A stretch of DNA of 64,000 nucleotides from Candidatus Daviesbacteria bacterium (GCA_016432425.1 CP066688.1:446211-510210), one strand, 5' to 3'; counted from the stretch's first letter, positions 17,478 to 50,898 are shown. Numbers and translations: made by a program. The notes: generated by a model from the letters alone, not told the origin.

Positions 17478-17484
17478 AATCGAA

Positions 17485-28316: not shown

Positions 28317-28988
28317 GGATGAATTTTACCATAAAAGTGCTACCTACGTAGATTTGCATATTAGAATTTTAGTTCGGGATATGTAACTTGCAGACCAGGA
28401 GTGCAGCTTCATCTAAATTATACCACATTTTGGCTTATTTAAACCTACTTTACGCCTGTTTTAGCAAATTCTGTTGTGCAACTTTGCCAGGAATAATTCT
28501 GACTCTCAGGCTTATGTAGACAAAAAGAGAGTGTAATAGGATTACTCTGTATGCCGATGCCTCGTTTTACTTTATCTGGTGTTTCCCAAAAACTTTAGCA
28601 ATAATTTATGTTATATATAAGTTTGCAAAACCAAGAGTTCTGAGGTTTCACTACAAAATATTTTTGTGCCATATTAGCTGAATTTTCTAGGTTCAAAGTA
28701 GTGTTGCTTAATGATTTATCTGTGATTGAAATCAAGATGGAATTTAGATCAGTAATTTCTAAGTTGTAATTGATGGTAGCAGTTGCTGATTTGTCTGTAT
28801 TTAGGCTCCAAGAAGCAGTATAGATGGTGTTTATCTTTTCGTCCTTCTGTAATTTAATATCATCTGCAGAAGAAATAAACGTCGGTTGTAATATTTGGGG
28901 CAATAAACTTATTAATATTTTCTTTGCCCTGGTTTTATAAAAATTATCATTAGTAGCTACGGCTGAAGAATTTTGACTGGTATTTTGA

Positions 28989-29489
28989 GTGCTTTGTTTA
29001 TTTAAAAAACTTAATTTTAAGATGCCTTGGGAATTATTAATTAAATTAGTTGAGTTTCATTTAAATAACCACTGCGATATGACAGTAGGTCTTACCAGTT
29101 ATTTGACAGATTATACAACCGATGTAGGAAAAATCTGGATCAATGGGTTCACGAATGATATTGTTAAATGTCTAGGAAGAGAAGAATATGATACTAATTT
29201 AAATAAAAACATTATTCCGTTAACGAGCGCAGGAATATATATAGTAAATTCACAAAAATTTAAAAATATGTACAAAACGTTTTTAGAAGATAATCAAAAT
29301 ATAAAAGAAACTCAGGTAGAGATGAGAGATCAATTATTACCTTGGTTGATTGGAGAAAAGATTTTCAAAGTAAAGGGTTTTGATTTAAGAGGAGAGATAC
29401 TAGATATCGGAAATTATGAAAGAATTGTTTATGCAAAAAAACATTGGAAGAAATATACTATAAACAATCAGGAAAATAGCCCTCTATGA
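28989..29489 (+). pseudogene. N-terminally truncated sugar-phosphate nucleotidyltransferase remnant
   Basis: 166 aa resembling only the C-terminal half of G1P-nucleotidyltransferases (LTSAGIYIV...GFDLRGEILDIGNYE). Preceded by a ~670-nt AT-rich non-coding gap. Confidence 0.4.
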
Positions 29490-30598
29490 AATATGGGAAA
29501 TTAATAGGTATAGATGCAAATGAAGCAAATCTAATATCTGAACGTGTTGGATCAAATAAGTTAGCATTCAATTTACTTAGGGCGTTGTATAAGTTAAAGG
29601 TGCAATATAATTTTGTGGTGTATCTCTCGAAGCCTCCGTTAGATGATTTGCCGAATCCCAAGGCAAATTGGCAGTACAGAGTTATTTCTCCTGCTAAGTT
29701 TTGGACCCAATGGAGGTTACCGTTAGATCTATATGCTCATAATCCTCGTCCGGATATTTTTTTAAGCCTAGGCCATTATGCACCAAGATTCACTCCGATC
29801 AAAAATATAGTTACTATCACAGACCTAGGTTTCCTGACCTATCCCGAACAATTAACCAGAAAAGATCTTTGGCAATTAAAACATTGGACTGACTATTCTG
29901 TTAGGTCGGCAGGGCATATTATAGCAATTTCTGAATATACGAAGAAAGATATAATAAAGTTCTATCACATTAATCCAAATAAAATATCAATAATTTATCC
30001 TGGGTACGATAAAGATCTGTTTAGACCACTAAATAATCAAAAAGAAATAGAGAAAATACTCCTTAAATACAATATTACTAAACCATACTTATTATTTATA
30101 GGTGCTCTTAAACCAAATAAAAATTTAGAGAGATTAATCACCGCATTTAGTAGGTTGGAGTACAAAAATTTTAATCTAGTTATAGTAGGGAAAAAGGGCT
30201 GGTTTTATGAATCAATTTTTGAAACTGTCTCTAAATTAAAACTTGAGGATAGAATAATTTTTACAGGATTTGTGCCAGATATTGAACTGCCTTTTCTACT
30301 AAATGCAGCTAGATTGTTTGTATTTCCATCTCTGTATGAAGGTTTTGGGATGCCAGTCATAGAAGCTATGGCGTGTGGTACCCCAGTAGTAACTTCTAAT
30401 GTGGCTAGCCTGCCAGAGGTTATCGGTGATGCTGGTGTGACAGTTGATCCTTACAGAGTTGAAGATATAACAGCTGGTATTATTGATGGTTTAGAAAAAC
30501 ATATATTTTATAGCGAAAAGGGTCTAAAAAGAGTAAAATCATTTAGTTGGGATCAAAGTGCAAAACAATTAATAAAAATAATAGAACGCTTCTTATGA
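29486..30598 (+). CDS. Glycosyltransferase family 4 (GT-B, retaining)
   Basis: EGFGMPVIEAMACGTPVV signature of GT4; 370 aa. Confidence 0.85.
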   Translation: MKYGKLIGIDANEANLISERVGSNKLAFNLLRALYKLKVQYNFVVYLSKPPLDDLPNPKANWQYRVISPAKFWTQWRLPLDLYAHNPRPDIFLSLGHYAPRFTPIKNIVTITDLGFLTYPEQLTRKDLWQLKHWTDYSVRSAGHIIAISEYTKKDIIKFYHINPNKISIIYPGYDKDLFRPLNNQKEIEKILLKYNITKPYLLFIGALKPNKNLERLITAFSRLEYKNFNLVIVGKKGWFYESIFETVSKLKLEDRIIFTGFVPDIELPFLLNAARLFVFPSLYEGFGMPVIEAMACGTPVVTSNVASLPEVIGDAGVTVDPYRVEDITAGIIDGLEKHIFYSEKGLKRVKSFSWDQSAKQLIKIIERFL

Positions 30599-30604
30599 CC
30601 ATCT

Positions 30605-31714
30605 ATGGTGTCATCTAATAAACAAATAAATTTTTTCTACTCTAAGACAACAAGTAAAAATGTTCGGATTATTATAGGGATTGATTCAATATTTAACCTG
30701 GATAAATTTCTCAAAAATTTTTATGCAGATATGATTTTTATTATTTGTGATGATAATGTAGCTAATCTTTACGCGAAAAAGATTCAGAAGATAATTAAAA
30801 GATTGCCGGTGTATTTAGTGACTCATTCACCTAATGAAAAAAGCAAAAATCTCAAGACTGCTAAAAAAATCATGGATATAATCATAAAAGAAGGAGGTAG
30901 CGAAAATAGTATTATATGTTCATTGGGCGGAGGTGTTACTGGAAATATTGCAGGTTTTGTCTCTTCGGTTTTATTTAGAGGTCTTACATTAATTCATATA
31001 CCAACTACACTTCTGGCACAATTAGATAGTGCTCCAGATGTAAAGCAATCTCTCAATACGATTCTTATAAAAAACGGTATAGGTTCATATAAGGCACCGG
31101 ATTTAGTATTAATAGATCCTCAATTTATGATCTCATTATCGGAGCGTGATATTAGATCTGGTTATGCAGAAGCGATAAAACATGCTTTTGCTCAAGATTT
31201 AGATTTTATTAAATTTATAGCCAGTCTTTTTAAGAACAACGATTATATAAACCTAAATTATTTAGAGAAAGTTATTATTAAGACGATCTCTTTGAAGATA
31301 TATCACTGGAAGAATGTTCCGACTATGTGGAATGATATGGGTAAAGTTGAGAGACTCACTCATCTGGGTCATACCATAGGTAAAGTATTAGAAATAATTG
31401 ATTTGGGGTATCTTACTCACGGAGAAGCAATAGCGCATGGTATGGTCATAGAATTTTATATATCATTCAAGCTTGGATATCTAGATATAGCTAAAGTTAA
31501 AAAAGCTCAAGAAATTATGAATGATATGGGACTGTTATTTCCTCTAAGTAAAAAATATACTCAGAATAAGATTATGAAGTTACTATATTCATCATCTTCA
31601 GATAAAGAACCATTGGTTGCTCTTTTACAAGATTTTGGTAATCCCGATACAATCTCTTTGCATTTACCTAGAGCAATAACAAAGGAAGCATTAAAATGGT
31701 ATTTTTCATTATAA
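30605..31714 (+). CDS. 3-Dehydroquinate-synthase-like sugar phosphate cyclase family protein
   Basis: LGGGVTGNIAGFVSSVLFRGLTLIHIPTTLLAQLDSA closely follows the DHQS core (GGGV.GD..GF....Y.RG...I.VPTTLL.Q.DS), but the substrate-binding DSSVGGKT is replaced by DSAPDVKQS. Confidence 0.75.
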   Translation: MVSSNKQINFFYSKTTSKNVRIIIGIDSIFNLDKFLKNFYADMIFIICDDNVANLYAKKIQKIIKRLPVYLVTHSPNEKSKNLKTAKKIMDIIIKEGGSENSIICSLGGGVTGNIAGFVSSVLFRGLTLIHIPTTLLAQLDSAPDVKQSLNTILIKNGIGSYKAPDLVLIDPQFMISLSERDIRSGYAEAIKHAFAQDLDFIKFIASLFKNNDYINLNYLEKVIIKTISLKIYHWKNVPTMWNDMGKVERLTHLGHTIGKVLEIIDLGYLTHGEAIAHGMVIEFYISFKLGYLDIAKVKKAQEIMNDMGLLFPLSKKYTQNKIMKLLYSSSSDKEPLVALLQDFGNPDTISLHLPRAITKEALKWYFSL

Positions 31715-31896
31715 AAATATTTTTATAATGTATGGCTTCGGGCATGTTGTTAATCTAGAACCAAAATTAAAGGAGTTTTTATGAAAGTTAGAGAGGGAAC
31801 ATTGAATGAAGAAGCTCTTAAATTTTTTAGTAAGATGGGATTCAATAAATTTGAATCAGATTATATAAGTTTGGAAAGAAAATTAGATTAATAAAT

Positions 31897-32601
31897 TTAT
31901 TCATGTAGGCAGGTAGACCACTTATAGGTAGCTGAACCTGGGTAAAATTGGCAAATGGTTATAAAATCTTCCGAGCTTTGTTTAGCATTAATAATATAAG
32001 AAGCTCCAAATCTAGTTTCATCAGGTTGAGTCTTCATGGTATTGCATTCAACAATACCTGCTATATCAGGGGAACTACAATTCCAAGTTAATCCTGAAGG
32101 AAATTGGACATATTTAGCCACAACTGTAGCTACAGTAGAATTAGAGATAGAAGTAGTAGCTTTAGATATAGATAATGATAAATTCAAATTGAGAGGAACT
32201 TGTTTTTTAGAATCCCACTGGTTAGAGAAATTAACTGCTACTGATCCTACTTGCCATCTATAGCCGAATGAAGAAGGTAACTCTAAAATTTCACCATTCT
32301 GTTTAAAAACACCTTTTTTTAAGTTTAGCTGAGTTTGGTAGGGGGTAGTTAAATACTGGTTAACAAATATTTGCGAAATTTTGGTTACCCCGGTGGGGAT
32401 TTCTAAGGGAATGGTTTGAGAAATGGAATTTTGACTGGTTTGTCTATTAAGATTTAATTTTAAGATGCCTTGAGAATTAAGATAGTAGAGGATAGAGGCC
32501 AGGAGGATTAAAATTAAGACCAGCAGGAGAATTTTGGCCCAAATGGTCTGAAAAAAACTCCTTTTTAGTATTTGTACCTCTGGTTTGGGTATCTCATCCA
32601 T
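31897..32601 (-). CDS. Membrane-anchored hypothetical protein
   Basis: N-terminal TM (ILLLVLILILLASILYYL), then a Ser/Thr/Asn-rich domain. Confidence 0.4.
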   Translation of the reverse strand: MDEIPKPEVQILKRSFFQTIWAKILLLVLILILLASILYYLNSQGILKLNLNRQTSQNSISQTIPLEIPTGVTKISQIFVNQYLTTPYQTQLNLKKGVFKQNGEILELPSSFGYRWQVGSVAVNFSNQWDSKKQVPLNLNLSLSISKATTSISNSTVATVVAKYVQFPSGLTWNCSSPDIAGIVECNTMKTQPDETRFGASYIINAKQSSEDFITICQFYPGSATYKWSTCLHE

Positions 32602-32743
32602 AACCTAATCGTAGATTTTATAAAGTTTTGTGTCAACTTTAAAAATTTATATCTATTACTTCTTCTCTTTGTATAACTGGGCGTGAATTCCCAGTATCAC
32701 AAAAATAACATTCCGAAACAGTTTTGTTATGGTTGTATTTGAA

Positions 32744-33742
32744 TTATTTTTGGGGAATCTCAATAAATGGTTGATTTTCATTCCAGGAGGCCCAGGTTCC
32801 CTCTAATAGACCGGGGATAGGGGAAAGCACTAACTGAATGGCCGCTGTGTTATTAGGCAAACTTCTGCTTGACACAACCCAAAAAGTGATACTTTCACCC
32901 AATTTTAGGGTTTTGGGTAATCCAGCCTCTTTGTCTATATACAGCTCCGCAGTAGCCACATTTAATTCCCGGGTTAGATTACCGACTCTATTTTGCTGGA
33001 TAGCTAGAAAGTATCCATTTCTAAACTCTTGAGCTTGGGTGGGATTAAAAAAACGCACCACACTATTATTTAAGACCAATTGCAAATCACCACTTTGGCC
33101 GGTATTTTCTATTTTTACTCTGACCCGAAATTGATTAATTAAAGGTTCTAATTTGTCCACGGTAAAGGTAGCACCACATTCACTACATTTCTCATGATAC
33201 GATAATGGAGTTGTCTCTGTAGCCGGAACAGTTTTGGTTTCTGGATTTGACTTTGGGGAAGAACTTGAAAGAGGGGTAGGGCTAAGTGAATTAGCTATAA
33301 CTGGGGTGGTTAAGCTGGCCATGACATAGTATTTATTGTCGGGTGTTTTATTTAAACCTATTCCTACACCCAAGACTTTTGTTCCTTTACCCCAAAGCTG
33401 CTCTCCATCTCCACAAGGTTGGACAAATTCTATCCCACCAGACACAGGGGGGCCAATTAAATTGCCGGCTAGGTTTTCGGCAATAACAATCTCTTTAATC
33501 TGGCAGCCAGCCAAAATTTGACCGTAGGGAGATAAGTAGGTAGAGATTGTCTCATCAGTTCTGGCTTCCGGTAGTAAAAACTGGCTAGCCCGATTATCAT
33601 CATTTTGAATTAGGGCTTGGACAAAGTCGCTGGCAATATCTCTGGGAGAAACGGGCTGAGCACAAGCTAAGATGGATAAAGAAGCTGCGCTGAAAGCTTG
33701 TAAGAGAGCCTTTTTGTCAAAAGCAAAGCACCTTTCTCTCAT
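32744..33742 (-). CDS. Secreted hypothetical protein
   Basis: Signal-like N-terminus (LSILACAQP) on a 332-aa ORF. Confidence 0.4.
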   Translation of the reverse strand: MRERCFAFDKKALLQAFSAASLSILACAQPVSPRDIASDFVQALIQNDDNRASQFLLPEARTDETISTYLSPYGQILAGCQIKEIVIAENLAGNLIGPPVSGGIEFVQPCGDGEQLWGKGTKVLGVGIGLNKTPDNKYYVMASLTTPVIANSLSPTPLSSSSPKSNPETKTVPATETTPLSYHEKCSECGATFTVDKLEPLINQFRVRVKIENTGQSGDLQLVLNNSVVRFFNPTQAQEFRNGYFLAIQQNRVGNLTRELNVATAELYIDKEAGLPKTLKLGESITFWVVSSRSLPNNTAAIQLVLSPIPGLLEGTWASWNENQPFIEIPQK

Positions 33743-34263
33743 TTAAAATCCTTTTGGGTTAAAGCTAATTTTTCTCCCTCGGGATAATTTTTAATGATGG
33801 AAAAAACCAAAGAAGCCTGATAATAGGTCATTTTCTCTCCCGCGCTGCCAATTTTTTCTCCTTCCTCAACCGCTTTGGGGTTGGTATCTGCTATTTCACC
33901 CTGGACATAATACACTGCCCTTAGACCCCGCTCTTCATTATCCAAATAAATAGTGGTAATTTTTTCATTATTGTACTCTGCCGGCAGGGTAGAGGTAACT
34001 GTGCTCATTTGCCCATCAAATACAGCATAAAGAGGGTCGCCCTTTTTCACTGCTGCTCCTTTTTGGCAAAAGCTCTCAGTAGAGGGACATTTAAAAGGAC
34101 CTTGCTGTAGGACAATTGGTTTGGGTTCAGTTGGAGGCGGGGTAATAACTACCTCTCGCTGTGGCAGAGGCGGAAATAGGTTTATCCGGTAGCTTAAAAA
34201 AATACCTACTCCTAAAGCAATCAAAGCTGCTATTAAAACAGGGCGCTTGAAAAATGATGGCAT
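33739..34263 (-). CDS. Membrane-anchored hypothetical protein
   Basis: N-terminal TM (VLIAALIALGVGIFLSY); 174 aa. Confidence 0.4.
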   Translation of the reverse strand: MPSFFKRPVLIAALIALGVGIFLSYRINLFPPLPQREVVITPPPTEPKPIVLQQGPFKCPSTESFCQKGAAVKKGDPLYAVFDGQMSTVTSTLPAEYNNEKITTIYLDNEERGLRAVYYVQGEIADTNPKAVEEGEKIGSAGEKMTYYQASLVFSIIKNYPEGEKLALTQKDFK

Positions 34264-34316
34264 TAACTTAATTGTTAATGTTTAGCTGCTAATTGTCAAA
34301 TGTTTTTCTCAAAAAC

Positions 34317-34676
34317 TTAGGATTTGGATTCTATTTGCTGCTCTTTTTCTGACCACCAGAATTTTTGGTCTTCAGAAACCCATGCTGATTCCCGGATGAT
34401 AACTGCTCCGGCAAAATTTTGACAATCTGACAGCTGAGATACCCGCTGGATGAGATGCCCGGCAAACTTAGGGTAATAACAATAAATATGGTCCTGTGCT
34501 TCCGGGTTAAGGTAAGCTCCCAGGTAAACTCCATTCATATCAGAGCTGTGGTGCAAAATGGTGCCCAACCTAGTTCTAAGAAATGGATAATTTGACTCCG
34601 GAGCAGGATTAAAGAGCTGACTTACCAGCACTATCCAACCAGCCCAGAAAATTAATAACAAGACTAATTTTTTCAT
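34317..34676 (-). CDS. Small secreted hypothetical protein
   Basis: Signal peptide MKKLVLLLIFWAGWIVLVS; 119 aa. Confidence 0.4.
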   Translation of the reverse strand: MKKLVLLLIFWAGWIVLVSQLFNPAPESNYPFLRTRLGTILHHSSDMNGVYLGAYLNPEAQDHIYCYYPKFAGHLIQRVSQLSDCQNFAGAVIIRESAWVSEDQKFWWSEKEQQIESKS

Positions 34677-34742
34677 CAGTTTAACCTTGCTAAAAATACC
34701 TTAAATTGCACGGTTTGGCAAATTCAGGTACAATTTGAACCT

Positions 34743-35318
34743 ATGATAGACAAAAGAAAGCTGGTTTTAAATGCTAAACAGTTAAGGAAAGGTCTTCCGA
34801 CTACCGACTACGGACTACAGAAGTTACGCAAGTCTGTAGACCGAAGACGGAATGCAATTTATATTGTCCTGGACAATGTGTTGGATACCTATAATATTGG
34901 CTCCATTTTCAGGCTGGCTGATGCGGTGGCTGCTAAAAAGATTTACCTTTGTGGGGGGACAGAAACACCGCCCAATCACAGGATCAAAAAAGCCTCTATT
35001 AATACTACTGAGGTGGTGGAGTGGGAGTATTATGCTTCGGCAAGCGAAGCGATCTCGAAACTTAAATCTCAAAACTCGAATCTACAAGTTATAGCTATTG
35101 AACAAGTTGAGGAATCAGTCCAATATGACAAATTTGAGTACAAATTGCCCCTGGCTTTGGTAGTGGGGCATGAAACTTCGGGAGTTTCACCAGAAGTTTT
35201 GAAAATAGTGGATGGAGTGGTAGAACTACCCATGTTTGGCGTGAACAAATCCCTTAACGTGATGGTTTCTTTAGCGATAGTTTTATATGAAGTTATCGAA
35301 AGGACTATCTCTAAATAA
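34743..35318 (+). CDS. SpoU/TrmH-family RNA 2'-O-methyltransferase
   Basis: VLDNVLDTYNIGSIFRLADAV and the C-terminal SPOUT knot region (VVGHETSGVS...LNVMVSLAIVLYE). Confidence 0.7.
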   Translation: MIDKRKLVLNAKQLRKGLPTTDYGLQKLRKSVDRRRNAIYIVLDNVLDTYNIGSIFRLADAVAAKKIYLCGGTETPPNHRIKKASINTTEVVEWEYYASASEAISKLKSQNSNLQVIAIEQVEESVQYDKFEYKLPLALVVGHETSGVSPEVLKIVDGVVELPMFGVNKSLNVMVSLAIVLYEVIERTISK

Positions 35319-35323
35319 CCTAT

Positions 35324-36334
35324 ATGGAAATTCTAATTTTGTATAACAGAGCGAGGGAGCTCAAAAAGGGTATACCTTCAGATTTGATCTGTGAGCAGGA
35401 AATGAAAATTATTGTTCCACTGGTAGCTGATCTATTACAAAATAAAGGCTACGGTGTTCAAACATTGAGGACAGAGTTTGGTTTGTGGGAGCAACTCAAA
35501 AAAAGAAGAAAGAGTGTTGATTTGGTTTTAAACCTTGCTGAGGGATTTGGAGGAGGTAATTCTGATGAACCCTTAGTTCCAGCAATGCTAGAAGCTCTAA
35601 ATGTACCATTTACAGGTGCATCTGCTCGTAATATGTATTTTACTCTTGATAAAGAGAAGACGAAGGTTTTTTTACATCAAGCAGGTATTCCTATTCCAAA
35701 ATGGCAATTGTTTAGAGATGAAACAACTGATTTATCACCTGATTTACAATTCCCACTTATAGTTAAACCAGTTAGAGAAGAAGCTAGTATAGGAATATAC
35801 GAAGATAGCGTAGTAACTACGGAGGTTGAGATGAAAAGAAAAGTTTCTCATACTCTTGCAAGGTATAAACAGCCTGCATTGGTAGAACAGTATATTGAAG
35901 GCAGAGAATTATCTGTTGGAATCATTGGTAACTATCCAGATCTGGATGTATTACCTCCACTAGAGTTTTTGTTTGAAGATGCAACGTCACCCCTGCAAGC
36001 ATTTAGATCTTATGAATACAAATGGGGAGGCAGGAAAGAACAAATGGTTCGAGCAAATATTACTCGAGGTTTACATGATCAATTAGTGGATTATGCTAGG
36101 GTCGCTTTTATAGAGACAGAATGTCAGGACTACGCACGAATGGATTACAGAATAGATAAAGAAGGCAATCCTTATTTATTAGAAGTTAATTATAATCCTG
36201 GTATTGGTCCAAATACTCATGGATTAAATAACACTTTAACTATGATGGCTTCTTTTAAAGGATTATCATTTGAAGATATGGTGGAAGATATTATTCTGTC
36301 TAGTGCTAAAAGATATGGTATAGCTACTTCATAA
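35324..36334 (+). CDS. ATP-grasp enzyme of the D-alanine-D-alanine ligase family
   Basis: Ddl-like central and C-terminal ATP-grasp motifs (FPLIVKPVREEASIGI..., EQYIEGRELSVGIIGN, ARMDYRIDKEGNPYLLEVN). Confidence 0.65.
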   Translation: MEILILYNRARELKKGIPSDLICEQEMKIIVPLVADLLQNKGYGVQTLRTEFGLWEQLKKRRKSVDLVLNLAEGFGGGNSDEPLVPAMLEALNVPFTGASARNMYFTLDKEKTKVFLHQAGIPIPKWQLFRDETTDLSPDLQFPLIVKPVREEASIGIYEDSVVTTEVEMKRKVSHTLARYKQPALVEQYIEGRELSVGIIGNYPDLDVLPPLEFLFEDATSPLQAFRSYEYKWGGRKEQMVRANITRGLHDQLVDYARVAFIETECQDYARMDYRIDKEGNPYLLEVNYNPGIGPNTHGLNNTLTMMASFKGLSFEDMVEDIILSSAKRYGIATS

Positions 36335-37653
36335 TGGTCAAAACTATAATTATCGCTAATGTAGCAGAGGCATTTAGTAGATCAATAGCCAAGATTAGAA
36401 GCAGAAAAGAAAAAACTCTTAGATTAGCTATTGAACAATCATTATCCCAACGCAGTATGTTTTGGGGCGGGGATAATAAAGTAGTAATAACACCTTATTT
36501 TATACCAAAATTGTTATTCCATAGGAACTCAATATTTTGTAAATATAAAAATACTGTAAACGTAACTCCTGTCAATGAGAGCATCAATTTATGTGAAGCT
36601 ATTCTTAAAGATAAAAAACTGTATGATTGGCTGAAAGTAATAATAAAAAATAACCCAAAGGTCAACCTTTCTCCCTATAGCTTTACAAATTTTTTCCTAG
36701 AATTGACCCGGAAGCTCAAAGAAGATAATCTGATATTTAAAACTGATGCTATACCGGATAGTAATACTGATGTTGTTTCTTACCTTGATTCTAAATCTGG
36801 TTTCCGGCTTGAACTTCTAAAGCTGCAAAAACAGTTTCCTGAAATAAAAATTCCTTATGGTTTTATATGTAACAATCCAGAAGTGGCTTTAAGAATAGTC
36901 GAACAATTCTATAAGCTTAATGCTTCTTGTGTATTAAAAGCTAATTTAGGTGAGTCGGGGTGGGGATTATTAACAATAAAACCTGGGGTGTTTAAATCTC
37001 TTATAGAACTGAGCAATAGTATAAAGTCTACTATTATTAACGAATCTATTTGGCAGAATGACTCTATAATCATAGAAGAACTAATTTTGCACACGAGTTC
37101 ACCCTCTGTAGAGGTGTTAGTTACTGCAAAAGGTCCAAAAATCACATATATTTGTCAACAAATAATTGATGATAAAGGAACATTTTCTGGAATACTTTTA
37201 GGAAAAAACACTATTAAAACCTCGCTGATTAAAAAATTGATCCATATCTCTTCAATAATAGGAAAAAGATATTGGCAAATGGGTTATAGAGGTTATTTTG
37301 ATATCGATTTTGTCATCTCATATAACGGTACTGCTTTTGCAATAGAAACAAACATGAGAAGGACTGGTGGTACTCATGTCTATGATTTTGCTTGCAAAGT
37401 TTTAGGAAAAAATTGGTTTGAAAAAGCAGTTATTTTATCTAAAGATAATTTTATTTATGGAGATGAAATTATTGATGGAAAAGAGATTTTTAAAAGAGTA
37501 AGTAAAATGTTATTTACAAGTAAAATTGGGAAAGGGGTAGTAATTTCGTTTATTAGTAAATCTATCCCCTTATTAGGATATTTCATCATAGGGGATAGTT
37601 TAGTGGAGGCAAGTAATCTAAAGAGTAGATTTGAGAGTTTAGTTAAGCTATAA
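36334..37653 (+). CDS. ATP-grasp domain protein (carboxylate-amine ligase-like)
   Basis: CVLKANLGESGWGL glycine-rich loop and the downstream ATP-grasp pattern; start overlaps the upstream stop. Confidence 0.45.
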   Translation: MVKTIIIANVAEAFSRSIAKIRSRKEKTLRLAIEQSLSQRSMFWGGDNKVVITPYFIPKLLFHRNSIFCKYKNTVNVTPVNESINLCEAILKDKKLYDWLKVIIKNNPKVNLSPYSFTNFFLELTRKLKEDNLIFKTDAIPDSNTDVVSYLDSKSGFRLELLKLQKQFPEIKIPYGFICNNPEVALRIVEQFYKLNASCVLKANLGESGWGLLTIKPGVFKSLIELSNSIKSTIINESIWQNDSIIIEELILHTSSPSVEVLVTAKGPKITYICQQIIDDKGTFSGILLGKNTIKTSLIKKLIHISSIIGKRYWQMGYRGYFDIDFVISYNGTAFAIETNMRRTGGTHVYDFACKVLGKNWFEKAVILSKDNFIYGDEIIDGKEIFKRVSKMLFTSKIGKGVVISFISKSIPLLGYFIIGDSLVEASNLKSRFESLVKL

Positions 37654-37665
37654 TTTATCCGTTTT

Positions 37666-38178
37666 ATGAAGAATACAAATTTATTGCCTGTTAAACCTTT
37701 TCAAGAAAGTTTAAATAAGGGTTATTGTGGACCAGCAAGCCTAAAAATGGTGCTTGATTATTATGGAGTTAATAAAACTGAAAAGGAGCTAGCTAAGCTT
37801 GCTAATACCACTACTGATTTAGGGACTAATGATCAATCACTAAAGAAAGCTGCAGAGATACTAGGTTTTAAGGTTGACATTAAAAACTATTCTTCTTTTG
37901 AAGATACAAAAAATTGGCTTGATAAAAAAGTTCCAGTAATCGTAGATTGGTTTACTAGAGGCAGAACGGATTATGATGAGTCAGAAGTAGCAGATGGGCA
38001 CTACTCAGTAGTAGTAGGATTAGATGAAGAATTTATCTATTTACAAGATCCAGAGATTGGAAAATTAAGAAAGATTAAGAAAGATGATTTTATGCGTGTA
38101 TGGTTTGATTTTACTGGTGAGTATATTAGCTCATGGCCAGAGATGATTATTAGACAGGTAATAGCCATTTACAGATAG
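37666..38178 (+). CDS. Peptidase C39-like (papain-fold cysteine peptidase) domain protein
   Basis: NKGYCGPASLKMVLDYYGV catalytic Cys motif of the C39/C39_2 family with a downstream His (DGHYSVVVG); 170 aa, stand-alone. Confidence 0.6.
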   Translation: MKNTNLLPVKPFQESLNKGYCGPASLKMVLDYYGVNKTEKELAKLANTTTDLGTNDQSLKKAAEILGFKVDIKNYSSFEDTKNWLDKKVPVIVDWFTRGRTDYDESEVADGHYSVVVGLDEEFIYLQDPEIGKLRKIKKDDFMRVWFDFTGEYISSWPEMIIRQVIAIYR

Positions 38179-39820: not shown

Positions 39821-39927
39821 TTGACAAAGTTTTTGTCAATTCCAATAAAATGGATAACTTCTTTAGGATTTGAGAGTTTGCTCTTCGACGAAGTCGAAGC
39901 AAAATCGAAAAAATTCGAAGAATTTTT

Positions 39928-39968
<41 letters not shown>

Positions 39969-40815
39969 TTTAAATATGCAAGTCAAAGGGATCGCAAGAT
40001 AACTGGCGGACGGGTGAGTAATGTATAGGAATCTACCTTGAAGTGGGACATAGCTTCTCGAAAGAGGAGGTAATTTCCCATGTGAACGCAAGTTCAAAGT
40101 CGTAAGACGCTTTAAGATGAGCCTATATTCTATCAGCTTGTTGGTGGGGTAATGGCCTACCAAGGCGACGACGGATAGCTGGTCTGAGAGGATGGTCAGC
40201 CACAATGGCACTGAGATACGGGCCATACACCTACGGGTGGCGCAGTTGGGAATTGTTGACAATGGGCGAAAGCCTGATCACGCGACGCCGCGTGGAGGAT
40301 TGAAGGCCTTCGGGTTGTAAACTCCTTTTATGTGGGAAGATTATGACGGTACCACACGAATAAGCACCTGCTAACTACGTGCCAGAAGCCTCGGTAATAC
40401 GTAGGGTGCAAGCGTTATCCGGATTCATTGGGCGTAAAGAGTTGCGTAGGCGGCTCGGCGCATTCTGCTTGAAAGCCTCTGGCTCAACCAGAGATTTGGG
40501 CAGAAGATGGCCGAACTAGATGGTTTGGGAGGGTGCTGGAACCTGTAGTGTAGCAGTGAAATGCGTTGATATTACAGGGAACACCAAAGGCGTAGGCAGG
40601 CACCTAACAAACCCATGACGCTGAGGCACGACAGCTAGGGGAGCGAAGCAGATTAGAGACCTGCGTAGTCCTAGCCGTAAACGATGTCCGCTAGTTACCC
40701 CGCCTTTGGCGGGGCGACGACGCTAACGGAAAAACCTCACCAGGGTTTGACATGCAGATGCTAAGCCTATGAAAGTAGGCCTCCTTCGAGGGTTCTGCAC
40801 AGATGCTGCATGGCT

Positions 40816-41633
40816 AATCCCGATTGAATCGGGATGATGGCCGCTCCTTAAGTAATTAAGGAGAAAAATAACCAACCCAAAACGGTGAAGCCCTACTTTT
40901 GGCGTAAGCCAACAAGCAAGATTTCTTACTTGATTTTCGTATTACTTTCGGGTAATGTGAAATTAAGGGGTAATACCGTGGGAAGCTGGTTAGTGTGAGG
41001 TTAGATGTTTGAGGTCGGAAGATGGATAAAGAGATTGGAAGTTTGAAATTGGTAGGATACAATCAAAGTAATGTGATCCAAAGTTTTAAAGATCTAAAAG
41101 TATATCAGGAATCTTATGAATTGGCTTTAATAATTAACAGAGCAATTTTGAGATTGCCTAATAGCGAGAGATTTGATTTGGTAGATCAGATGCGAAGAGC
41201 GTCAAAATCTATTCCAGCAAATATTGCTGAAGGATATGCTAAAAGATTGTCTGAGAAAGAATTTAAAAGATATCTTTTATCAGCAATTGGATCGTGTAAT
41301 GAAATGGTTGTACATATCAGTTTTGCAAAAGATTTAGGTTTTTGGAAATCTGAATTTTGTGAGGATTTACTTAAACGATATGATATCGTAGGTAAACAAC
41401 TTACAAGATTGTTGCAAAATTGGAAAGCCTATCCAACTTCTAAAGTCTAATTTCACAATCTACCTTCTAATTTCTAACATCTAACTTCTATCTAACATAG
41501 CCCCGTAGAGACTGATTCCGCCAGCTGGCGGATGAGAATAGCCAAATGAGGTTATTCAGACGGTTGGCTCCCTACCTTAAATAAAGGGGGAGAAGGTATA
41601 GTCCATGCTCCTAGTAATAGGCAGATTTACATG
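40816..41633 (+). mobile_element. Group-I-like intron in the 16S rRNA between GCATGGCT and GTCGTCAGCTCG
   Basis: Exon sequence GCTGCATGGCT|GTCGTCAGCTCG is restored exactly when 40816-41633 is removed. The 5' exon ends in U and the insert ends in G. The 3' part shares blocks with 23S intron 3 (ccccgtagagact, gtatagtccatgc, ttacatg). Confidence 0.65.
41022..41450 (+). CDS. Four-helix-bundle protein of the 23S-rRNA-intervening-sequence family
   Basis: DLKVYQESYELALIINRAI...FDLVDQMRRASKSIPANIAEGYAKRLSEKEFKRYLLSAIGSCNEMVVHISFAKDLGF matches the IVS four-helix-bundle family pattern; encoded inside the 16S intron. Confidence 0.75.
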   Translation: MDKEIGSLKLVGYNQSNVIQSFKDLKVYQESYELALIINRAILRLPNSERFDLVDQMRRASKSIPANIAEGYAKRLSEKEFKRYLLSAIGSCNEMVVHISFAKDLGFWKSEFCEDLLKRYDIVGKQLTRLLQNWKAYPTSKV

Positions 41634-42238
41634 GTCGTCAGCTCGAGGCGTGAGCTGTACCCTTAAGTGGGACATCGAGCGCAACCCGCACCGTATGTTA
41701 AATAATCCATACGGAACAGCCCCAGTTTTTACTGGGAAGGAAGGTGCGGATGACGTCAAGTCAGCACGGTTCTTACACCCTGGGCTACACACACCCTACA
41801 ATGGCGAAGAACAACGAGTTGCAAGCTGGTAACAGCAAGCTAATCTCTGAAATTTCGCCTCAGTTCAGATCGAGGGCTGCAATCCGCCCTCGTGAAGTCG
41901 GAATTGCTAGTAATCGCGGATCAGCAGGCCGCGGTGAATACGTTCTCGGGTCTTGTACACACCGCCCGTCAAGCGAGCAAAGTTGGGGGCGCCCGAATGC
42001 CTATGTATGTAGGCAGAAGGTGAAACCAGCGATGAGCGCTAAGTCGTAACAAGGTATCCCTAGCCGAAGCTGGGGATGGATCACCTCCTTTCTGGAGATT
42101 AGGTCAAACTAATGATTACTTAAATAATGTATCGTTATGGTATGTCATAGTTCGCAGTAGTTTGATCCATTGATCACGTATGTTCACGCATATGATGATA
42201 GAGAGTTTGAATATTCTCTCTTTAAAGAAAAATATTCC

Positions 42239-42262
42239 CCACCACTTTTTTGGTATTAAAGT
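42239..42262 (+). promoter_or_regulatory. 16S rRNA 3' processing-stem strand
   Basis: Complement of 39797-39820 (see above). Confidence 0.7.
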
Positions 42263-42374
42263 TTTTTTGGCCATTTTTGCGCCAACCGCAGATTTTTATG
42301 AAGTCTAGGGAGCAAAAAGGCCAGTTCGACCTTATACTGTTTATTTGCAAAGCAAATGACAGTTCAAGCTATGC

Positions 42375-42740
42375 TTATACTCGTAAATTTCTAATTTCAG
42401 TAGAAGAGGAGAGCTGGTAAATTTTCTCTCCCAGTTTGTAATCAAAAACAAATCTCGGTAGAATTTTTACTTTTATTCCAGCTTTTAAAAAATCTTTTCG
42501 GTGATTTTTATCCATTGGATCAGCTCGATACCAAGTATTAGTATTAGAATCTTTTAATTTCAACTGTTTTTTAAAATATTTTACCCAATTTTCTGGGGAA
42601 TTTTGATCTATTAATGGAAGTATTTGATATGGTTTAGTAGTGGTTTTTAATTCCTCCTGAAGCTTCTGGACTCTTACTTGATAAGTAGACAGACTTGGAT
42701 CCTGAGTAGAACCAATACCAATAATAATTCCTATTGTCAT
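42375..42740 (-). CDS. Hypothetical protein (possible C-terminal extension or partner of the LAGLIDADG endonuclease)
   Basis: 121-aa ORF whose start overlaps the stop of the upstream LAGLIDADG gene (ATGA); no motif. Confidence 0.3.
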   Translation of the reverse strand: MTIGIIIGIGSTQDPSLSTYQVRVQKLQEELKTTTKPYQILPLIDQNSPENWVKYFKKQLKLKDSNTNTWYRADPMDKNHRKDFLKAGIKVKILPRFVFDYKLGEKIYQLSSSTEIRNLRV

Positions 42741-43399
42741 TCGAGAAATTTAGCCTTTCTTTCAAGATATAATTTGCAATTAGGGTAGTATATAAAATTC
42801 AAAAGTTTCTTAGTATCTTTCTTTGCATATTCTAACTTCCATTGGTTGCCATTACCATAAGAACATATTTTCCTTGGGAAAAGTTCTAACTCTTTGGTTA
42901 ATAAATCTCTCAATGAATTCAAAAACAATGGACTTCCGGAGGTAAAATTACATCTAAGATCAGTTTGTTTGCGATGATCTTTAGTTCTTAAATAAGTTGT
43001 AAAAAATACACTTCCATCGCCATCAAAATAGCCCCTAATAAAATCAGCTAGAAATTCTTTTTGGATTTTAGGTAACCTAATTACTAGACTTTTTTTTCGG
43101 AGGCCACCTAATAAAAGTAAATCTTTGTATAAAATTTTAGAATGTACGATTAGGGTAGAAGATTTTTCAAGCTTTCCTTTTCTGCGATAACGGAAAATAG
43201 GGGAATTAGAATTCAGAACCCCTTTTACTTGCTGTAGGATTGATTCATCTAGCGAAGAGAAAGTAATTCTATAAGATCGCTCGTGTCTCATATATCCATC
43301 AGCTAACCAGTATCCAAAAACATAGGCCATATCTGGGGACCATTTTGAGAAGAAATTTTCGTTCAAGGTGTATTTTCTAGAGTGGTATTTAAGAAGCAT
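42737..43399 (-). CDS. Free-standing double-motif LAGLIDADG homing endonuclease
   Basis: Two LAGLIDADG motifs, YVFGYWLADGY and FIRGYFDGDGSV, in a 220-aa ORF between the 16S and tRNA-Cys. Confidence 0.8.
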   Translation of the reverse strand: MLLKYHSRKYTLNENFFSKWSPDMAYVFGYWLADGYMRHERSYRITFSSLDESILQQVKGVLNSNSPIFRYRRKGKLEKSSTLIVHSKILYKDLLLLGGLRKKSLVIRLPKIQKEFLADFIRGYFDGDGSVFFTTYLRTKDHRKQTDLRCNFTSGSPLFLNSLRDLLTKELELFPRKICSYGNGNQWKLEYAKKDTKKLLNFIYYPNCKLYLERKAKFLE

Positions 43400-43444
43400 T
43401 ACTTTATATTAGCCAAATAAAATACGAAAAGTCAATATTTTGGG

Positions 43445-43516
43445 AGGTGCAGGCGGGAATCGAACCCGCGCATCGAGGTTTTGCAGACCCCAGCGTTTCC
43501 ACTTCGCCACTGCACC
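43445..43516 (-). tRNA. tRNA-Cys (GCA)
   Basis: Reverse complement folds as a cloverleaf: acceptor GGTGCAG/CTGCACC, anticodon loop CTGCAAA (anticodon GCA), T-arm GCGGG-TTCGATT-CCCGC. Confidence 0.8.
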
Positions 43517-43560
43517 AAGTATTGGCTTATTTTAACACGAACTTCTGGTAGAATACATTT

Positions 43561-43980
43561 ATGGCAAAAGTAATTCGAGTAGTCGGAGCAGTAATTTTTA
43601 ATCCCAAAAGTGATAGTTATTTTGTGGGCCAGCGGGGGAAAAATAAAAAAGTTCCTTTAAAATGGGAATTTATTGGGGGAAAAGTAGAAACAGGAGAAGA
43701 TTTGTTGCGAGCTATTCAGAGAGAATTTAAAGAAGAAGTGGGGATAAATATTAAGGCACTAAGATCTATTAATAAAAGTCAGTTTAATTATGGAGGGGAA
43801 GTGGGTTTGATTGAGGTTAATTTTATTGAATGCGAACTTTTTAAAGATGAGCCGAATTTTGACCCGGAGGTTTATGAAATCTGCAAATGGGTTAAAAGGG
43901 GAGAATTAGCTAATCTGGATTGGGTAGAAGCAGATAGAGAGTTTGCTTTAAATTTAGCCAAAAATGAGGTAAAATATTGA
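43561..43980 (+). CDS. Nudix hydrolase (MutT-like)
   Basis: Nudix box GGKVETGEDLLRAIQREFKEEVGI. Confidence 0.8.
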   Translation: MAKVIRVVGAVIFNPKSDSYFVGQRGKNKKVPLKWEFIGGKVETGEDLLRAIQREFKEEVGINIKALRSINKSQFNYGGEVGLIEVNFIECELFKDEPNFDPEVYEICKWVKRGELANLDWVEADREFALNLAKNEVKY

Positions 43981-43987
43981 AGTTTTA

Positions 43988-44059
43988 GGGCGCGTAGCTC
44001 AGTGGTAGAGCGCTTATCTGATAAGTAAGAGGTCCTTGGTTCAATCCCAAGCGCGCCCA
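43988..44059 (+). tRNA. tRNA-Ile (GAT)
   Basis: GGGCGCG acceptor, GCTCAGTGGTAGAGC D-arm, anticodon loop CTGATAA (anticodon GAT), T-arm CTTGG-TTCAATC-CCAAG. Confidence 0.85.
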
Positions 44060-44085
44060 CTTAAGTTCATGTTATGATTTAATTA

Positions 44086-45093
44086 ATGCAAGTTGTTTCT
44101 TCAGACCTTGTTTTAGGTAAGAAAGTTTTGCTCCGTTTAGACTTAGATGTTCCCCTTCGACAAGTCGGAGATGCCCGACAGGGTACTCAGGGCCATGGCC
44201 AATTTGAGGTAATTGATGACTTTAGATTAAAAGCCGGGCTGGAAACAGTGTATCTCTGTTTAGAACATGCCAAACAGGTAATTATCATGGGACATATTGG
44301 CAGGCCAATGGGAAGGGAGGTCCCAGAGCTTTCCGTAAAACCTATTTATGGTTGGTTTTTAAGTCAGGGTTTAGCTCCCCACCTCGAAGGTGGAAGGCTA
44401 AAGTTGTTGGAGAATTTAAGGTTTGAGGAGGGGGAAGAGAAAGCGGATTTAGGATATGCCAAGGAATTAGCTAAATATGGGGATTTTTTTGTTAATGAAG
44501 CTTTTGCCTCTTTCCATCCAGCTGCCTCTACCACAGTTTTGCCTACATTACTGCCTCACGCGGCAGGGTTACATTTTGCCAAAGAAGTAGAAAAATTAAC
44601 CAAAATCAGAATTAATCCACATCACCCCTTGGTAGTAATTGTGGGAGGGGCCAAAAAGGAGGATAAAATCCCCTTTATCCAGGAAATTTCTAAGATAGCA
44701 GATCAGGTTTTAGTAGGAGGGAAAATGGTTTCGACTGCTTCTAACTTCACCGCCAACGTACTAGTAGCTACTTTAAATGAAGATGGTTTAGATATTACTG
44801 AGGAAACAATAAATTCCTGGAAGGAAATAATTAAAGCGGCCGGGATGATAGTTTGGAACGGACCCATGGGGAGGGTGGAAGAAGGTAAAATAGCCGGCAC
44901 TAAGGCAGTGGCAGAAGCGATCAGTGAGTCTTGGGCGGAAGTGATAATTGGTGGAGGAGATACGGTGGGTTTTTTAGCAAAAGAGGGACTGCTGGAAAAA
45001 TTCGAACACCAAGCTTTCATCTCTACCGGTGGTGGGGCTATGTTAGAATTTTTAAGTAAAGGGACTTTGCCCACCATAGAGGCCCTGAAATGA
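44086..45093 (+). CDS. pgk: Phosphoglycerate kinase (compact form)
   Basis: N-terminal KKVLLRLDLDVPL and HIGRP substrate-binding motifs and C-terminal GGGDT nucleotide-domain motif; 335 aa. Confidence 0.75.
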   Translation: MQVVSSDLVLGKKVLLRLDLDVPLRQVGDARQGTQGHGQFEVIDDFRLKAGLETVYLCLEHAKQVIIMGHIGRPMGREVPELSVKPIYGWFLSQGLAPHLEGGRLKLLENLRFEEGEEKADLGYAKELAKYGDFFVNEAFASFHPAASTTVLPTLLPHAAGLHFAKEVEKLTKIRINPHHPLVVIVGGAKKEDKIPFIQEISKIADQVLVGGKMVSTASNFTANVLVATLNEDGLDITEETINSWKEIIKAAGMIVWNGPMGRVEEGKIAGTKAVAEAISESWAEVIIGGGDTVGFLAKEGLLEKFEHQAFISTGGGAMLEFLSKGTLPTIEALK

Positions 45094-45665
45094 ATTTAAT
45101 AATTACTAATCTTTATTTGTTTGCCATGGCCACAGTGCTGGCCCTTTTGGAAATCCAAATTGAAGGAGCTCATGGTTGGGCGAAAAATCTACCAACCTGG
45201 AGGCCGCATCCCGGCCATCCTTTAGCTAAAATTTATGCAAAGTTTATGTCCGGGAAAGAGCTAACTGGCTATCACAGCGCCATGTTTATCTTTGTGGTTT
45301 TAATCTTCCATCTGCCTTATGTATTTGGTCTAACCTTTACCCTGGAACACTGGTTACAAACACTCTCTTTATTTTTTATCTTTATAGCCTTATGGGATTT
45401 TTTGTGGTTTGTCTTTAACCCCTACCATCCTTTGAAAAATTTTTCTAAAAATAACCCTAATCACAAAGCTTTCTTTTTAGGGTTGCCTCTAGATTACTAC
45501 TGGGCGATTGCTTTTTCTTTCTCACTGGCAGCAGTTGCACAGTTTATTTTTGGATTTAGTGGTTTTATCTCCTGGTGGTTGGGGAATTTTGGGTTATTTT
45601 TAACAGAAACTGTGGGGGCTATTTTATTTTCTTATCTGGTTTTGGATATAGATAATTGGTTCTAA
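45090..45665 (+). CDS. Integral membrane hypothetical protein
   Basis: 191 aa with ~5 hydrophobic helices; overlaps the pgk stop. Confidence 0.45.
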   Translation: MNLIITNLYLFAMATVLALLEIQIEGAHGWAKNLPTWRPHPGHPLAKIYAKFMSGKELTGYHSAMFIFVVLIFHLPYVFGLTFTLEHWLQTLSLFFIFIALWDFLWFVFNPYHPLKNFSKNNPNHKAFFLGLPLDYYWAIAFSFSLAAVAQFIFGFSGFISWWLGNFGLFLTETVGAILFSYLVLDIDNWF

Positions 45666-45686
45666 ATTTGCTACTCTAAAGGGGCC

Positions 45687-46727: not shown

Positions 46728-46866
46728 TACTAAAACCTGTATAACATTTCGTTATACGATCGTACACGAATTGTGACGGATTTCAGATGTCAATCTAATC
46801 CACCCCCAGGTGTTCTGATTTTATTTAACTATTGACATTGGTTGGGTTTTTATATAAAAAGTAGCC

Positions 46867-50205: not shown

Positions 50206-50245
<40 letters not shown>

Positions 50246-50841: not shown

Positions 50842-50898
<57 letters not shown>

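Follow-up and report, generated by a model that had tools for sequence, protein, structure and literature searches.

A 64,000-nucleotide stretch of an ultra-small, metagenome-assembled Candidatus Daviesbacteria genome (Microgenomates; GCA_016432425.1, CP066688.1:446211-510210; hereafter the window) carries, between positions 28317 and 38178, genes for a sugar-phosphate cyclase related to dehydroquinate synthase (DHQS), a family 4 glycosyltransferase (GT4), two ATP-grasp ligases and a stand-alone C39-fold cysteine peptidase. We consider it fairly probable that these genes represent two independent islands, acquired separately and set among native genes: island B, a mobile peptide-making operon formed by the two ligases and the peptidase (the trio), and island A (genes at 28989-31714), the remnant of a cyclase cassette. 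An earlier interpretation made from the DNA alone (the sequence-only reading) had placed all of these enzymes in a single acquired cluster.

Two AT-rich islands separated by native DNA

The AT-richness attributed to the interval and the compositional shift that goes with it are present, but they form two patches and not one block. The G+C content (GC) is 0.320 at 28317-32601 (island A), 0.407 at 32602-35323 and 0.330 at 35324-38178 (island B), against 0.404 for the whole window and 0.42 in the flanks; the two islands lie 3.6 kb apart, with 2.7 kb of native-composition DNA intervening. None of the 558 non-overlapping stretches of equal length elsewhere in the window matched the GC of island A. 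For island B, 23 of 555 such stretches in the window had a GC as low or lower, and these presumably overlap island A. Both islands are the most AT-rich stretches of their own length in the window. The GC at third codon positions is 0.23-0.26 in the six island genes, compared with a window mean of 0.35 and values of 0.35-0.43 in the intervening genes. Few further genes of the window are equally AT-rich and, given that LAGLIDADG homing endonuclease genes are among them, low GC appears to track mobile DNA in this genome. Both patches look acquired, as the sequence-only reading had supposed, and do not look like routine housekeeping genes.

The edges of the islands are otherwise unmarked: no integrase, transposase or tRNA was found at either island, and promoter and terminator scans gave results indistinguishable from those for shuffled sequence. 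A scan for direct or inverted repeats as boundary marks returned only one similarity, between 28978-29036 and 32424-32479 (a 59-nt stretch, 83% identical), which was rejected as a boundary repeat since it is explained by the paralogy of two membrane-protein genes. PADLOC anti-phage models gave no matches for ten interval proteins.

We also weighed the possibility that nothing here is special, and that the interval holds a shikimate-pathway AroB, housekeeping ATP-grasps of the Ddl or MurT type and ordinary variation in GC. The best NCBIfam matches are indeed the aroB and Ddl models, and there are the few other equally AT-rich genes mentioned above. The scores, however, fall far under the curated cut-offs, with 210.7 bits for the cyclase against TIGR01357 aroB (equivalog cut-off 305) and 145 bits for the first ligase against the best Ddl model (cut-off 243). 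The cyclase belongs to a clade apart from AroB, with changes at positions 119, 150, 151, 153, 264, 268 and 275, the second ligase is PGM1-like, the islands are the AT-richest stretches of their size in the window, and the other AT-rich genes include those of LAGLIDADG endonucleases. We give this explanation almost no credence.

No linkage between the two islands in other genomes

For comparison, we used 80 loci with relatives of the second ATP-grasp protein from one-genome-per-species GTDB contigs, and queried them with every protein of the interval. The second ATP-grasp protein of the window is 100% identical to HYW45_02520, and the locus of the interval is also present in Logan assemblies of SRR12113430 and related runs. 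The genomic contexts of DHQS-like homologues (n=8) were obtained through exact-protein look-ups. A further 80 metagenome loci, retrieved with the DHQS-like alignment, turned out to encode ordinary DHQS (at most 39% identity and generic AroB motifs) and were thus uninformative on the context of the family.

According to the sequence-only reading, the cyclase, the GT4, the two ATP-grasps and a C39/BtrH-like enzyme act in one acquired pathway that makes an aminocyclitol, a cyclitol-peptide conjugate or a mycosporine-like compound. All these enzyme classes do occur within 10 kb, both patches are AT-rich, there is a weak match to BtrH_N (19.9 bits), and in mycosporine pathways a DHQS-like cyclase does work alongside an ATP-grasp and a Ddl-like ligase. 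The gene sets are nevertheless unlinked in the compared loci. A GT4 gene next to a DHQS-like gene was found in none of the 80 loci, and the trio loci contained no homologue of island A's GT4, DHQS-like protein or nucleotidyltransferase, of the SpoU methyltransferase, of CdaA or of the four membrane-protein genes of the interval. An isolated weak match (26-37% identity) to either the GT4 or the DHQS-like protein was seen in 8 of the 80, all of them distant-paralogue loci, and never to both. In the opposite direction, the trio was absent from all eight DHQS-like contexts. Considering that linkage is lacking in either direction, islands A and B are independent modules.

The features that define the pathways invoked by analogy are missing as well. 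Butirosin-type logic is disfavoured by a cyclase without the fingerprint of 2-deoxy-scyllo-inosose synthase (DOIS), by a BtrH_N score below the Pfam cut-off of 29.7 bits, and by the lack of a carrier protein or aminotransferase among the scanned open reading frames (ORFs) of the window. Mycosporine-type logic is disfavoured by a cyclase without the fingerprints of desmethyl-4-deoxygadusol synthase (DDGS) or the synthase of 2-epi-5-epi-valiolone (EEVS), by the lack of linkage elsewhere and by the lack of an O-methyltransferase among the same ORFs, the sole methyltransferase being SpoU. In addition, the 2.7 kb between the two sets holds genes of native composition, mostly on the opposite strand, and the nucleotidyltransferase is truncated. 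The analogies with butirosin, mycosporine and validamycin fail on these defining features, and the one-pathway explanation, largely refuted by the comparative context, is in our view very improbable. Neither annotation nor genome mining should treat the interval as a single cyclitol-peptide cluster.

The trio of island B is conserved and probably horizontally mobile

The orthologous group of the second ligase comprised 27 loci (L015-L039, L052 and L069), with 36-44% identity. An adjacent Ddl-like gene (55-66% identical) was present in 24 of the 27 and an adjacent C39 gene (58-75%) in 23, and most of the missing members correspond to contigs that end beside the second ligase. Two loci have the order ligase 2, C39, Ddl-like. 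The trio is conserved across the Candidate Phyla Radiation (CPR). In other genomes its GC differs from the flanking GC by -0.14 to +0.12, and in a second Daviesbacteria genome (L039) it is located elsewhere, together with a transaminase and an aminomutase. Given this departure in composition and the different location, the data fit a trio that is horizontally mobile.

The ligase core also occurs outside CPR. A six-gene set without C39 lies on pTHIMO01, a conjugative plasmid of the purple sulfur bacterium Thioflavicoccus mobilis 8321, a cultivated gammaproteobacterium (L179, NC_019941.1, 5329-12172), and encodes a PGM1-like ligase, a KamA-family radical SAM enzyme, a Ddl-like ligase, SbnB, SbnA and a diaminobutyrate transaminase. 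Its Ddl-like protein is 43% identical over the full length to that of the window and its second ligase 30%; the PGM1-like ligase is missing from the PLSDB gene table for this plasmid. NCBI annotates plasmid-borne relatives of the second ligase as 'peptide ligase PGM1-related protein'. An Aminicenantes contig likewise encodes both ligases and no peptidase. The second-ligase family is rare, since 1.84 billion representatives yielded 329 clusters at E<=1e-30, and a search of phage genomes with this protein gave no matches.

All ORFs within 8 kb of the trio were clustered in 30 loci, and four neighbour families recurred, each in 12-13 loci, with at least one of them in 22 of the 30. The NCBIfam scores, in bits, identify them as SbnA (388 against an equivalog cut-off of 350), SbnB (302 against 327), the family of diaminobutyrate-2-oxoglutarate transaminases (434 against 402) and a radical SAM aminomutase of the KamA family (198.3 against 199.2). 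A version with seven genes occurs, for example, in locus L004 (GCA_001000145.1, contig LCHB01000006.1). SbnA and SbnB produce L-2,3-diaminopropionate (Dap), the transaminase produces L-2,4-diaminobutyrate (Dab), and enzymes of the KamA type produce beta-amino acids such as beta-lysine. The transaminase route to Dab differs from that of the published dabABC. Given that the trio adjoins supply enzymes for diamino acids and beta-amino acids in most other genomes, the product of island B is most likely a short, ribosome-independent peptide that would contain diamino acids.

Two divergent ligases and a conserved C39 peptidase

The sequence-only reading had named a Ddl-family ATP-grasp, a second ATP-grasp and a C39-like peptidase with a CGPASL motif, and the Pfam matches bear out all three. 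The Ddl-like protein is nevertheless not simply a Ddl. It has no match to Dala_Dala_lig_N, its alignment to the Ddl of Yersinia pestis begins at residue 57, and, of the D-Ala-binding residues (Glu15, Ser150 and Tyr216 in the E. coli and Y. pestis enzymes), Ser150 is changed to Ala and Tyr216 to Trp. That Trp (W234) is invariant in 27 Ddl-like orthologues. The core residues of the ATP-grasp are retained. Judged by its low score and these features, the protein is not a canonical D-Ala-D-Ala ligase.

The second ligase was modelled by AlphaFold with a pLDDT of 94. In Foldseek it matched 8YND (a Streptomyces 'ATP-grasp peptide ligase'), PGM1 (3WVQ) and BesA (8YI6) with TM-scores of 0.71-0.82 and a probability of 1.00, and LdmS (7R8Q) at a lower score. 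A profile of its family retrieved 8YND (E 5e-15), PGM1 (4.7e-12) and BesA (5.2e-11), and the ATP-grasp catalytic motifs are conserved. The fold and domain order, with a pre-ATP-grasp domain followed by the ATP-grasp, are common to the PGM1, BesA and LdmS structures, whereas identity to these is only 14-16%. Scores against the NCBIfam models of BesA and LdmS (35 and 31 bits, cut-offs 750 and 475) show that the protein is not an orthologue of either. The partners in those systems also differ from the Ddl-like ligase and C39 peptidase of island B, which has no nearby precursor gene.

The catalytic residues of the C39 protein (Q13, C21, H112 and D128) are intact and invariant in 26 orthologues. 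No signal peptide or transmembrane segment was evident by eye, no predictor having been run, and the peptidase is probably cytoplasmic. Its nearest folds are the leader-peptidase domains of PCAT1 and ComA and the pseudomurein endoisopeptidase PeiR (E 1.3e-6, TM-score 0.71), and more distant fold matches are two papain-fold enzymes from small-molecule pathways, the phytochelatin-synthase-like Alr0975 of Nostoc (TM-score 0.69) and CtaG. The protein shares the Cys/His/Asp residues and the upstream Gln with the ComA, PCAT1 and LahT domains and with PeiR, which are its best fold and sequence matches, but unlike them it is attached neither to an ABC transporter nor to cell-wall-binding repeats, and it has a family-specific W-x-T-R-G-R-x-D-Y loop. 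The C39 protein is unusually conserved, the 120 best clusters being 67-85% identical to it, and all are stand-alone proteins of 168-170 aa.

Island A: a divergent cyclase in a reduced cassette

The DHQS-like cyclase has both DHQ_synthase domains and, as the sequence-only reading had pointed out, a change of the substrate-binding motif DSSVGGKT to DSAPDVKQS. Considering that the altered motif is conserved across the family, it is not a product of decay. The family consists of about 50 database clusters with 41-65% identity; beyond these, identity falls sharply, first to nucleotidyltransferase::cyclase fusions and next to AroB of the ordinary kind. Daviesbacteria and Microgenomates are the sources of the two named members, and the clade is made up of uncultivated organisms. 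Among 23 aligned members, D141, S142, V146, K147, S149, N151, R250, T252, H253, H256 and H272 are invariant, and A143 and D145 nearly so.

The fingerprint of each cyclase class was rebuilt from the reference sequences in the supplement of PMC4426668 (eLife 2015), which cover DHQS, 2-epi-valiolone synthase (EVS), EEVS, DDGS, DOIS, aminoDHQS and an EboD-like protein, with the Aspergillus nidulans DHQS numbering (used below) verified against the sequence. The window protein keeps the metal ligands E194, H271 and H287 and the phosphate or hydroxyl ligands R130, D146, K152, N162, K197 and K250. It departs from the DHQS active-site set (D119, G150-G151-K152, R264, N268, H275 and K356) in that D119 is Asn and T153 is Gln, both as in DOIS, G150-G151 is Asp-Val, N268 is His and H275 is Lys. 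Position 264 is Glu in most members and Arg, Lys or Val in some, followed by an invariant Arg, and position 356 is variable in the family. At 119, 151, 268 and 275 the replacements are shared by all, or almost all, of the 23 members. The combination of His268 and Lys275 is absent from all reference classes compared: position 268 is Asn in DHQS and EVS, Glu in DOIS, Asp in EEVS and Ala in DDGS, and position 275 is His or Pro/Met. Although N119 and K152-Q153 are shared with DOIS, the protein reads E264, H268 and K275 where DOIS has G264, E268 (Glu243 of BtrC) and H275, and K250, H268 and K275 where sedoheptulose-7-phosphate cyclases have M250, D/A268 and P/M275.

In a neighbour-joining analysis the family was monophyletic in 189 of 200 bootstraps and was never nested in DHQS. 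Judged by its active-site residues and this placement, the protein is not a bona fide AroB, and no aro genes were detected among the scanned ORFs of the window, which covers 64 kb of the 820-kb contig. In one relative (L175), a DAHP_synth_1 gene is located 6 kb from the DHQS-like gene. Given that the metal and phosphate ligands are kept in a substrate pocket of its own, the substrate is probably a sugar phosphate other than the 7-phosphate of 3-deoxy-D-arabino-heptulosonate (DAHP).

The fusion proteins that border the family (P0172, P0174 and P0187; 620-646 aa) join an N-terminal nucleotidyltransferase to a DOIS-like cyclase domain with N119, K-Q and Gln at 268. One of the fusion genes (L014, 6465-8396) is followed by genes for a short-chain dehydrogenase and a PfkB kinase. 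They represent an uncharacterised 'Rosetta stone' between cyclase and nucleotidyl transfer.

The nearest DHQS-like homologue with a genomic context (L178, 59% identity) keeps the GT4/DHQS-like pair, with a GT4 directly upstream that is 69% identical to that of the window. Other relatives have alongside them orthologous genes for a NUDIX protein, an APH-like kinase, a full-length nucleotidyltransferase and an EryCIII-like (GT1) glycosyltransferase, and some are additionally near a transaldolase or an aldolase. These partners (kinase, NUDIX, nucleotidyltransferase and glycosyltransferase) are not shikimate or aminoglycoside genes. The window has none of the kinase, NUDIX and GT1 genes, and what it keeps of the nucleotidyltransferase is a C-terminal remnant, as the sequence-only reading had recognized; it aligns only to residues 116-271 of 271, 144-288 of 297 and 157-304 of 306 of intact homologues, which themselves adjoin DHQS-like genes. 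No remnant of the N-terminal half was detected upstream of 28989, and the truncated protein is probably inactive. Given the missing partners and this truncation, the cassette is reduced, and it is at best partly functional here.

The gap of about 670 nt at the start of the island, taken as non-coding by the sequence-only reading, is mostly occupied by a decayed minus-strand paralogue of the membrane-protein gene 31897-32601. In tblastn, residues 42-234 of the 234-aa protein align to 29035-28469 with 25% identity and an in-frame stop (E 4.6e-10 in the local comparison and 3e-4 in that with the whole window), and the first ~41 codons are missing. The pseudogene and the gene for the nucleotidyltransferase point away from each other, and each is missing its 5' end; a single deletion probably removed the two ends, as if including a shared promoter region.

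Proposed functions and alternatives

The gene identities, the composition, the conserved linkage, the folds and the active-site patterns described above are observed, and the substrates, the products and the part played by the peptidase are inferred. In our proposal for island B, the Ddl-like ligase would join two small amino acids through an acyl-phosphate intermediate, and the PGM1/BesA-like ligase would add a further amino acid or a peptide onto a free amine. The cytoplasmic C39 peptidase may then trim, release or hydrolyse the product, in maturation, recycling or self-protection. For the bare trio of the window, the substrates would be imported or would be ordinary amino acids. A precedent for the logic is found in dapdiamide-type pathways, which combine SbnA/SbnB-type Dap supply with ATP-grasp ligation and need no non-ribosomal peptide synthetase (NRPS). 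This supply and ligation logic matches 12-13 of the 30 trio loci and pTHIMO01, but the adenylating ligase, amidotransferase, dioxygenase and exporter of the dapdiamide type were not seen, the trio has instead a Ddl-like ligase and a C39 peptidase, and the window lacks Dap supply. An ATP-grasp synthetase is paired with a papain-fold enzyme acting on the same small peptide in glutathionylspermidine synthetase/amidase and with phytochelatin synthase. The former pairing resembles the trio, although the trio proteins are separate, the peptidase is of the C39 and not the CHAP or C83 type, and neither thiol peptides nor polyamines are indicated.

For island A, the DHQS-like enzyme would cyclise a sugar phosphate other than DAHP, and in its relatives the kinase, nucleotidyltransferase and glycosyltransferase may activate and transfer the cyclised product or a companion sugar. 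It is the company of these genes that suggests such a pathway.

Several points weigh against this account of two islands. No supply genes for diamino acids are present among the scanned ORFs of the window, so that its trio may act on substrates unlike those suggested by other genomes. Our assignment for the C39 peptidase is a guess: its nearest structural relatives cut ribosomal leader peptides or cell-wall isopeptides, functions that suit rival explanations equally well, and it is much more conserved than the ligases, which a simple recycling role explains poorly. Island A may be non-functional as a whole. Finally, the deep placement of the DHQS-like clade is weak, as its sister was DOIS in 53 and the fusion clade in 51 of the 200 bootstraps (~26% each), with no clear sister in the remainder, in a neighbour-joining tree with a small reference set.

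Alternatively, island B could be a hybrid of ribosomal and non-ribosomal synthesis like that of pheganomycin. The C39 enzyme would cut the leader off a ribosomal precursor encoded elsewhere, and the PGM1-like ligase would modify the new N-terminus with an amino acid or with a dipeptide made by the Ddl-like enzyme. PGM1 itself couples an unusual amino acid with ribosomal peptides. In structure, the second ligase is nearest to PGM1 and to the Streptomyces peptide ligase, and the peptidase is nearest, in fold and sequence, to the domains that process double-glycine leaders. Against this, a search for conserved small ORFs (18-95 aa) within ~5 kb of the trio in 31 loci found none, the small ORFs that did occur being common only to two near-identical contigs, and the genes of the window trio are packed with gaps of 5-37 nt, which leave no space for a precursor. 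Neither a recurring ABC exporter nor a double-glycine substrate was found in the trio loci. The versions outside CPR keep both ligases and the supply genes and dispense with the peptidase. The graspetide loci described in CPR (PMC8939145) are also differently composed, with RimK-like ATP-grasps, an adjacent precursor and 'cluster 23'/TPR partners, whereas the trio has ligases of the Ddl and PGM1 types and no precursor was found. We regard this hybrid as unlikely.

Remodelling of the cell wall is another candidate, with the ligases building or extending a diamino-acid side chain or cross-bridge of peptidoglycan, in the manner of D-aspartate ligases and Ddl, and the C39 protein acting on it as an endo(iso)peptidase. 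The relationship of the first ligase to the Ddl family is clear, PeiR is among the best matches of the peptidase, diamino acids are the classical cross-linking residues of peptidoglycan, and the downstream neighbour of island B is CdaA, a signalling enzyme linked to the cell wall. But all three proteins apparently lack signal peptides and membrane segments by eye, the peptidase is probably cytoplasmic, and the Ddl residues that bind D-Ala are replaced. No mur, fts or pbp genes accompany the trio in any of 30 loci, and its patchy distribution and mobile-looking composition do not suit a cell-wall function either. This, too, seems to us improbable.

A bolder alternative keeps the two islands and goes further. 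Together with its optional supply genes for Dap, Dab and beta-amino acids, the trio would constitute an unrecognised, horizontally mobile pathway whose product is a diamino-acid-rich cationic peptide or oligomer. Its unusually conserved papain-fold enzyme would then not be a hydrolase but, like phytochelatin synthase, a transpeptidase through which the ligase product is polymerised or transferred. The DHQS-like clade would separately be a new class of sugar phosphate cyclase with a product of its own. If true, the trio would be a small-molecule tool of genome-reduced CPR symbionts in the interaction with their hosts. We consider this combination quite unlikely, and retain as our preferred account the two separate islands, with island B as a peptide-making operon and island A as a cassette remnant.

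Genes between and around the islands

The features of the interval are given in Table 1. The identities proposed by the sequence-only reading for the GT4, the minus-strand genes and the SpoU methyltransferase agree with our annotation. The four minus-strand proteins have N-terminal hydrophobic segments, read off the translations, and no Pfam family above threshold, an M23 match being weak; their genes were not found beside the trio or the DHQS-like gene in the comparison loci. The SpoU gene has a GC of 0.41 (0.42 at third codon positions) and shows no linkage to the trio in other genomes.

Table 1. Features in the interval 28317-38178, with positions counted from the first nucleotide of the window.
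Feature	Position	Strand	Remarks
Decayed paralogue (pseudogene) of membrane-protein gene 31897-32601	28469..29035	-	Occupies most of the supposed non-coding gap; first ~41 codons missing
GlgC-like sugar nucleotidyltransferase, C-terminal half, 166 aa	28989..29489	+	Island A; GC 0.279; nucleotide-binding N-terminal half deleted
GT4-family glycosyltransferase	29486..30598	+	Island A; Glycos_transf_1 135 bits; E-x7-E motif; apparently intact
DHQS-like sugar-phosphate cyclase	30605..31714	+	Island A; DHQ_synthase N- and C-terminal domains; distinct clade
Four membrane or secreted protein genes (234, 332, 174 and 119 aa)	31897..34676	-	GC 0.35-0.42; outside both islands
SpoU/TrmH-type RNA 2'-O-methyltransferase	34743..35318	+	Pfam SpoU_methylase 115 bits; native gene directly upstream of island B
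Ddl-like ATP-grasp ligase	35324..36334	+	Island B, gene 1; Dala_Dala_lig_C 104 bits; no Dala_Dala_lig_N match
PGM1/BesA/LdmS-type ATP-grasp carboxylate-amine (peptide) ligase, 439 aa	36334..37653	+	Island B, gene 2; weak ATP-grasp_3
Stand-alone C39-fold cysteine peptidase, 170 aa, CGPASL motif	37666..38178	+	Island B, gene 3; Peptidase_C39 (PF03412) 59.6 bits, cut-off 22

Directly left of island A, on the minus strand (25909-28316), are genes for a glycoside hydrolase resembling apiosidases (PF13204) and an oxidoreductase of the DRL type that has a SAF domain; their composition is near normal, and no link to island A was found. Further left, the gene at 11514-13322 encodes a 602-aa fusion of cis-prenyltransferase (UppS-like) and trans-polyprenyl synthetase domains, and 15104-18210 contains a second polyprenyl synthetase, a second UppS and a gene of the amino-acid-kinase family, possibly an isopentenyl phosphate kinase; taken together, these genes have the appearance of an isoprenoid block. 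Close to one another at the window's left end (1120-5763) are genes for a protein with a Fic domain, one with a GGDEF domain and an ATP-dependent DNA ligase of 602 aa with all three ligase domains.

To the right are rRNA genes that are split and contain insertions, the usual condition in CPR. The 16S gene (39922-42091) is 2170 nt long against a model of 1533 nt, with an insertion that encodes a 23S_rRNA_IVP-family protein (41022-41450), and the 23S gene (49722-53093) carries a LAGLIDADG_1 ORF (51876-52442). Three LAGLIDADG genes are located just outside the rRNA genes, at 42737-43399 on the minus strand and at 53181-53804 and 54241-54693, and the LAGLIDADG genes measured have a GC of 0.31-0.32, as AT-rich as the islands. 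The 16S-23S spacer (42092-49721) spans 7.6 kb and contains tRNA-Cys (minus strand), tRNA-Ile, genes for phosphoglycerate kinase, glyceraldehyde-3-phosphate dehydrogenase, a deoxyhypusine-synthase-family protein and an arginase-family protein (minus strand), and tRNA-Ala.

Significance for CPR bacteria

CPR bacteria, or Patescibacteria, are thought to be poor in biosynthesis and dependent on their hosts. As far as the literature shows, the enzyme superfamilies involved and the NRPS-independent logic of ATP-grasp ligation are known, and the trio, its supply genes, its spread in CPR and its conserved stand-alone C39 peptidase are undescribed in the searchable literature; we found no description of island B in publications on this gene combination in CPR, and none of the DHQS-like clade or of island A in those on CPR sugar phosphate cyclases. 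The existence of this clade indicates that 'AroB' annotations in CPR genomes can conceal a different sugar phosphate cyclase, which affects how the completeness of the shikimate pathway is scored in metabolic reconstructions. The copies of both modules in the window are minimal or decayed. If the trio is a ribosome-independent peptide operon, it would be among the few candidate specialised-metabolite pathways in CPR, exchanged among many lineages, with the same ligase core on the conjugative plasmid of a cultivated purple sulfur bacterium and a compact size of three to seven genes. Both modules are concrete leads in a group of bacteria where few biosynthetic pathways are known.

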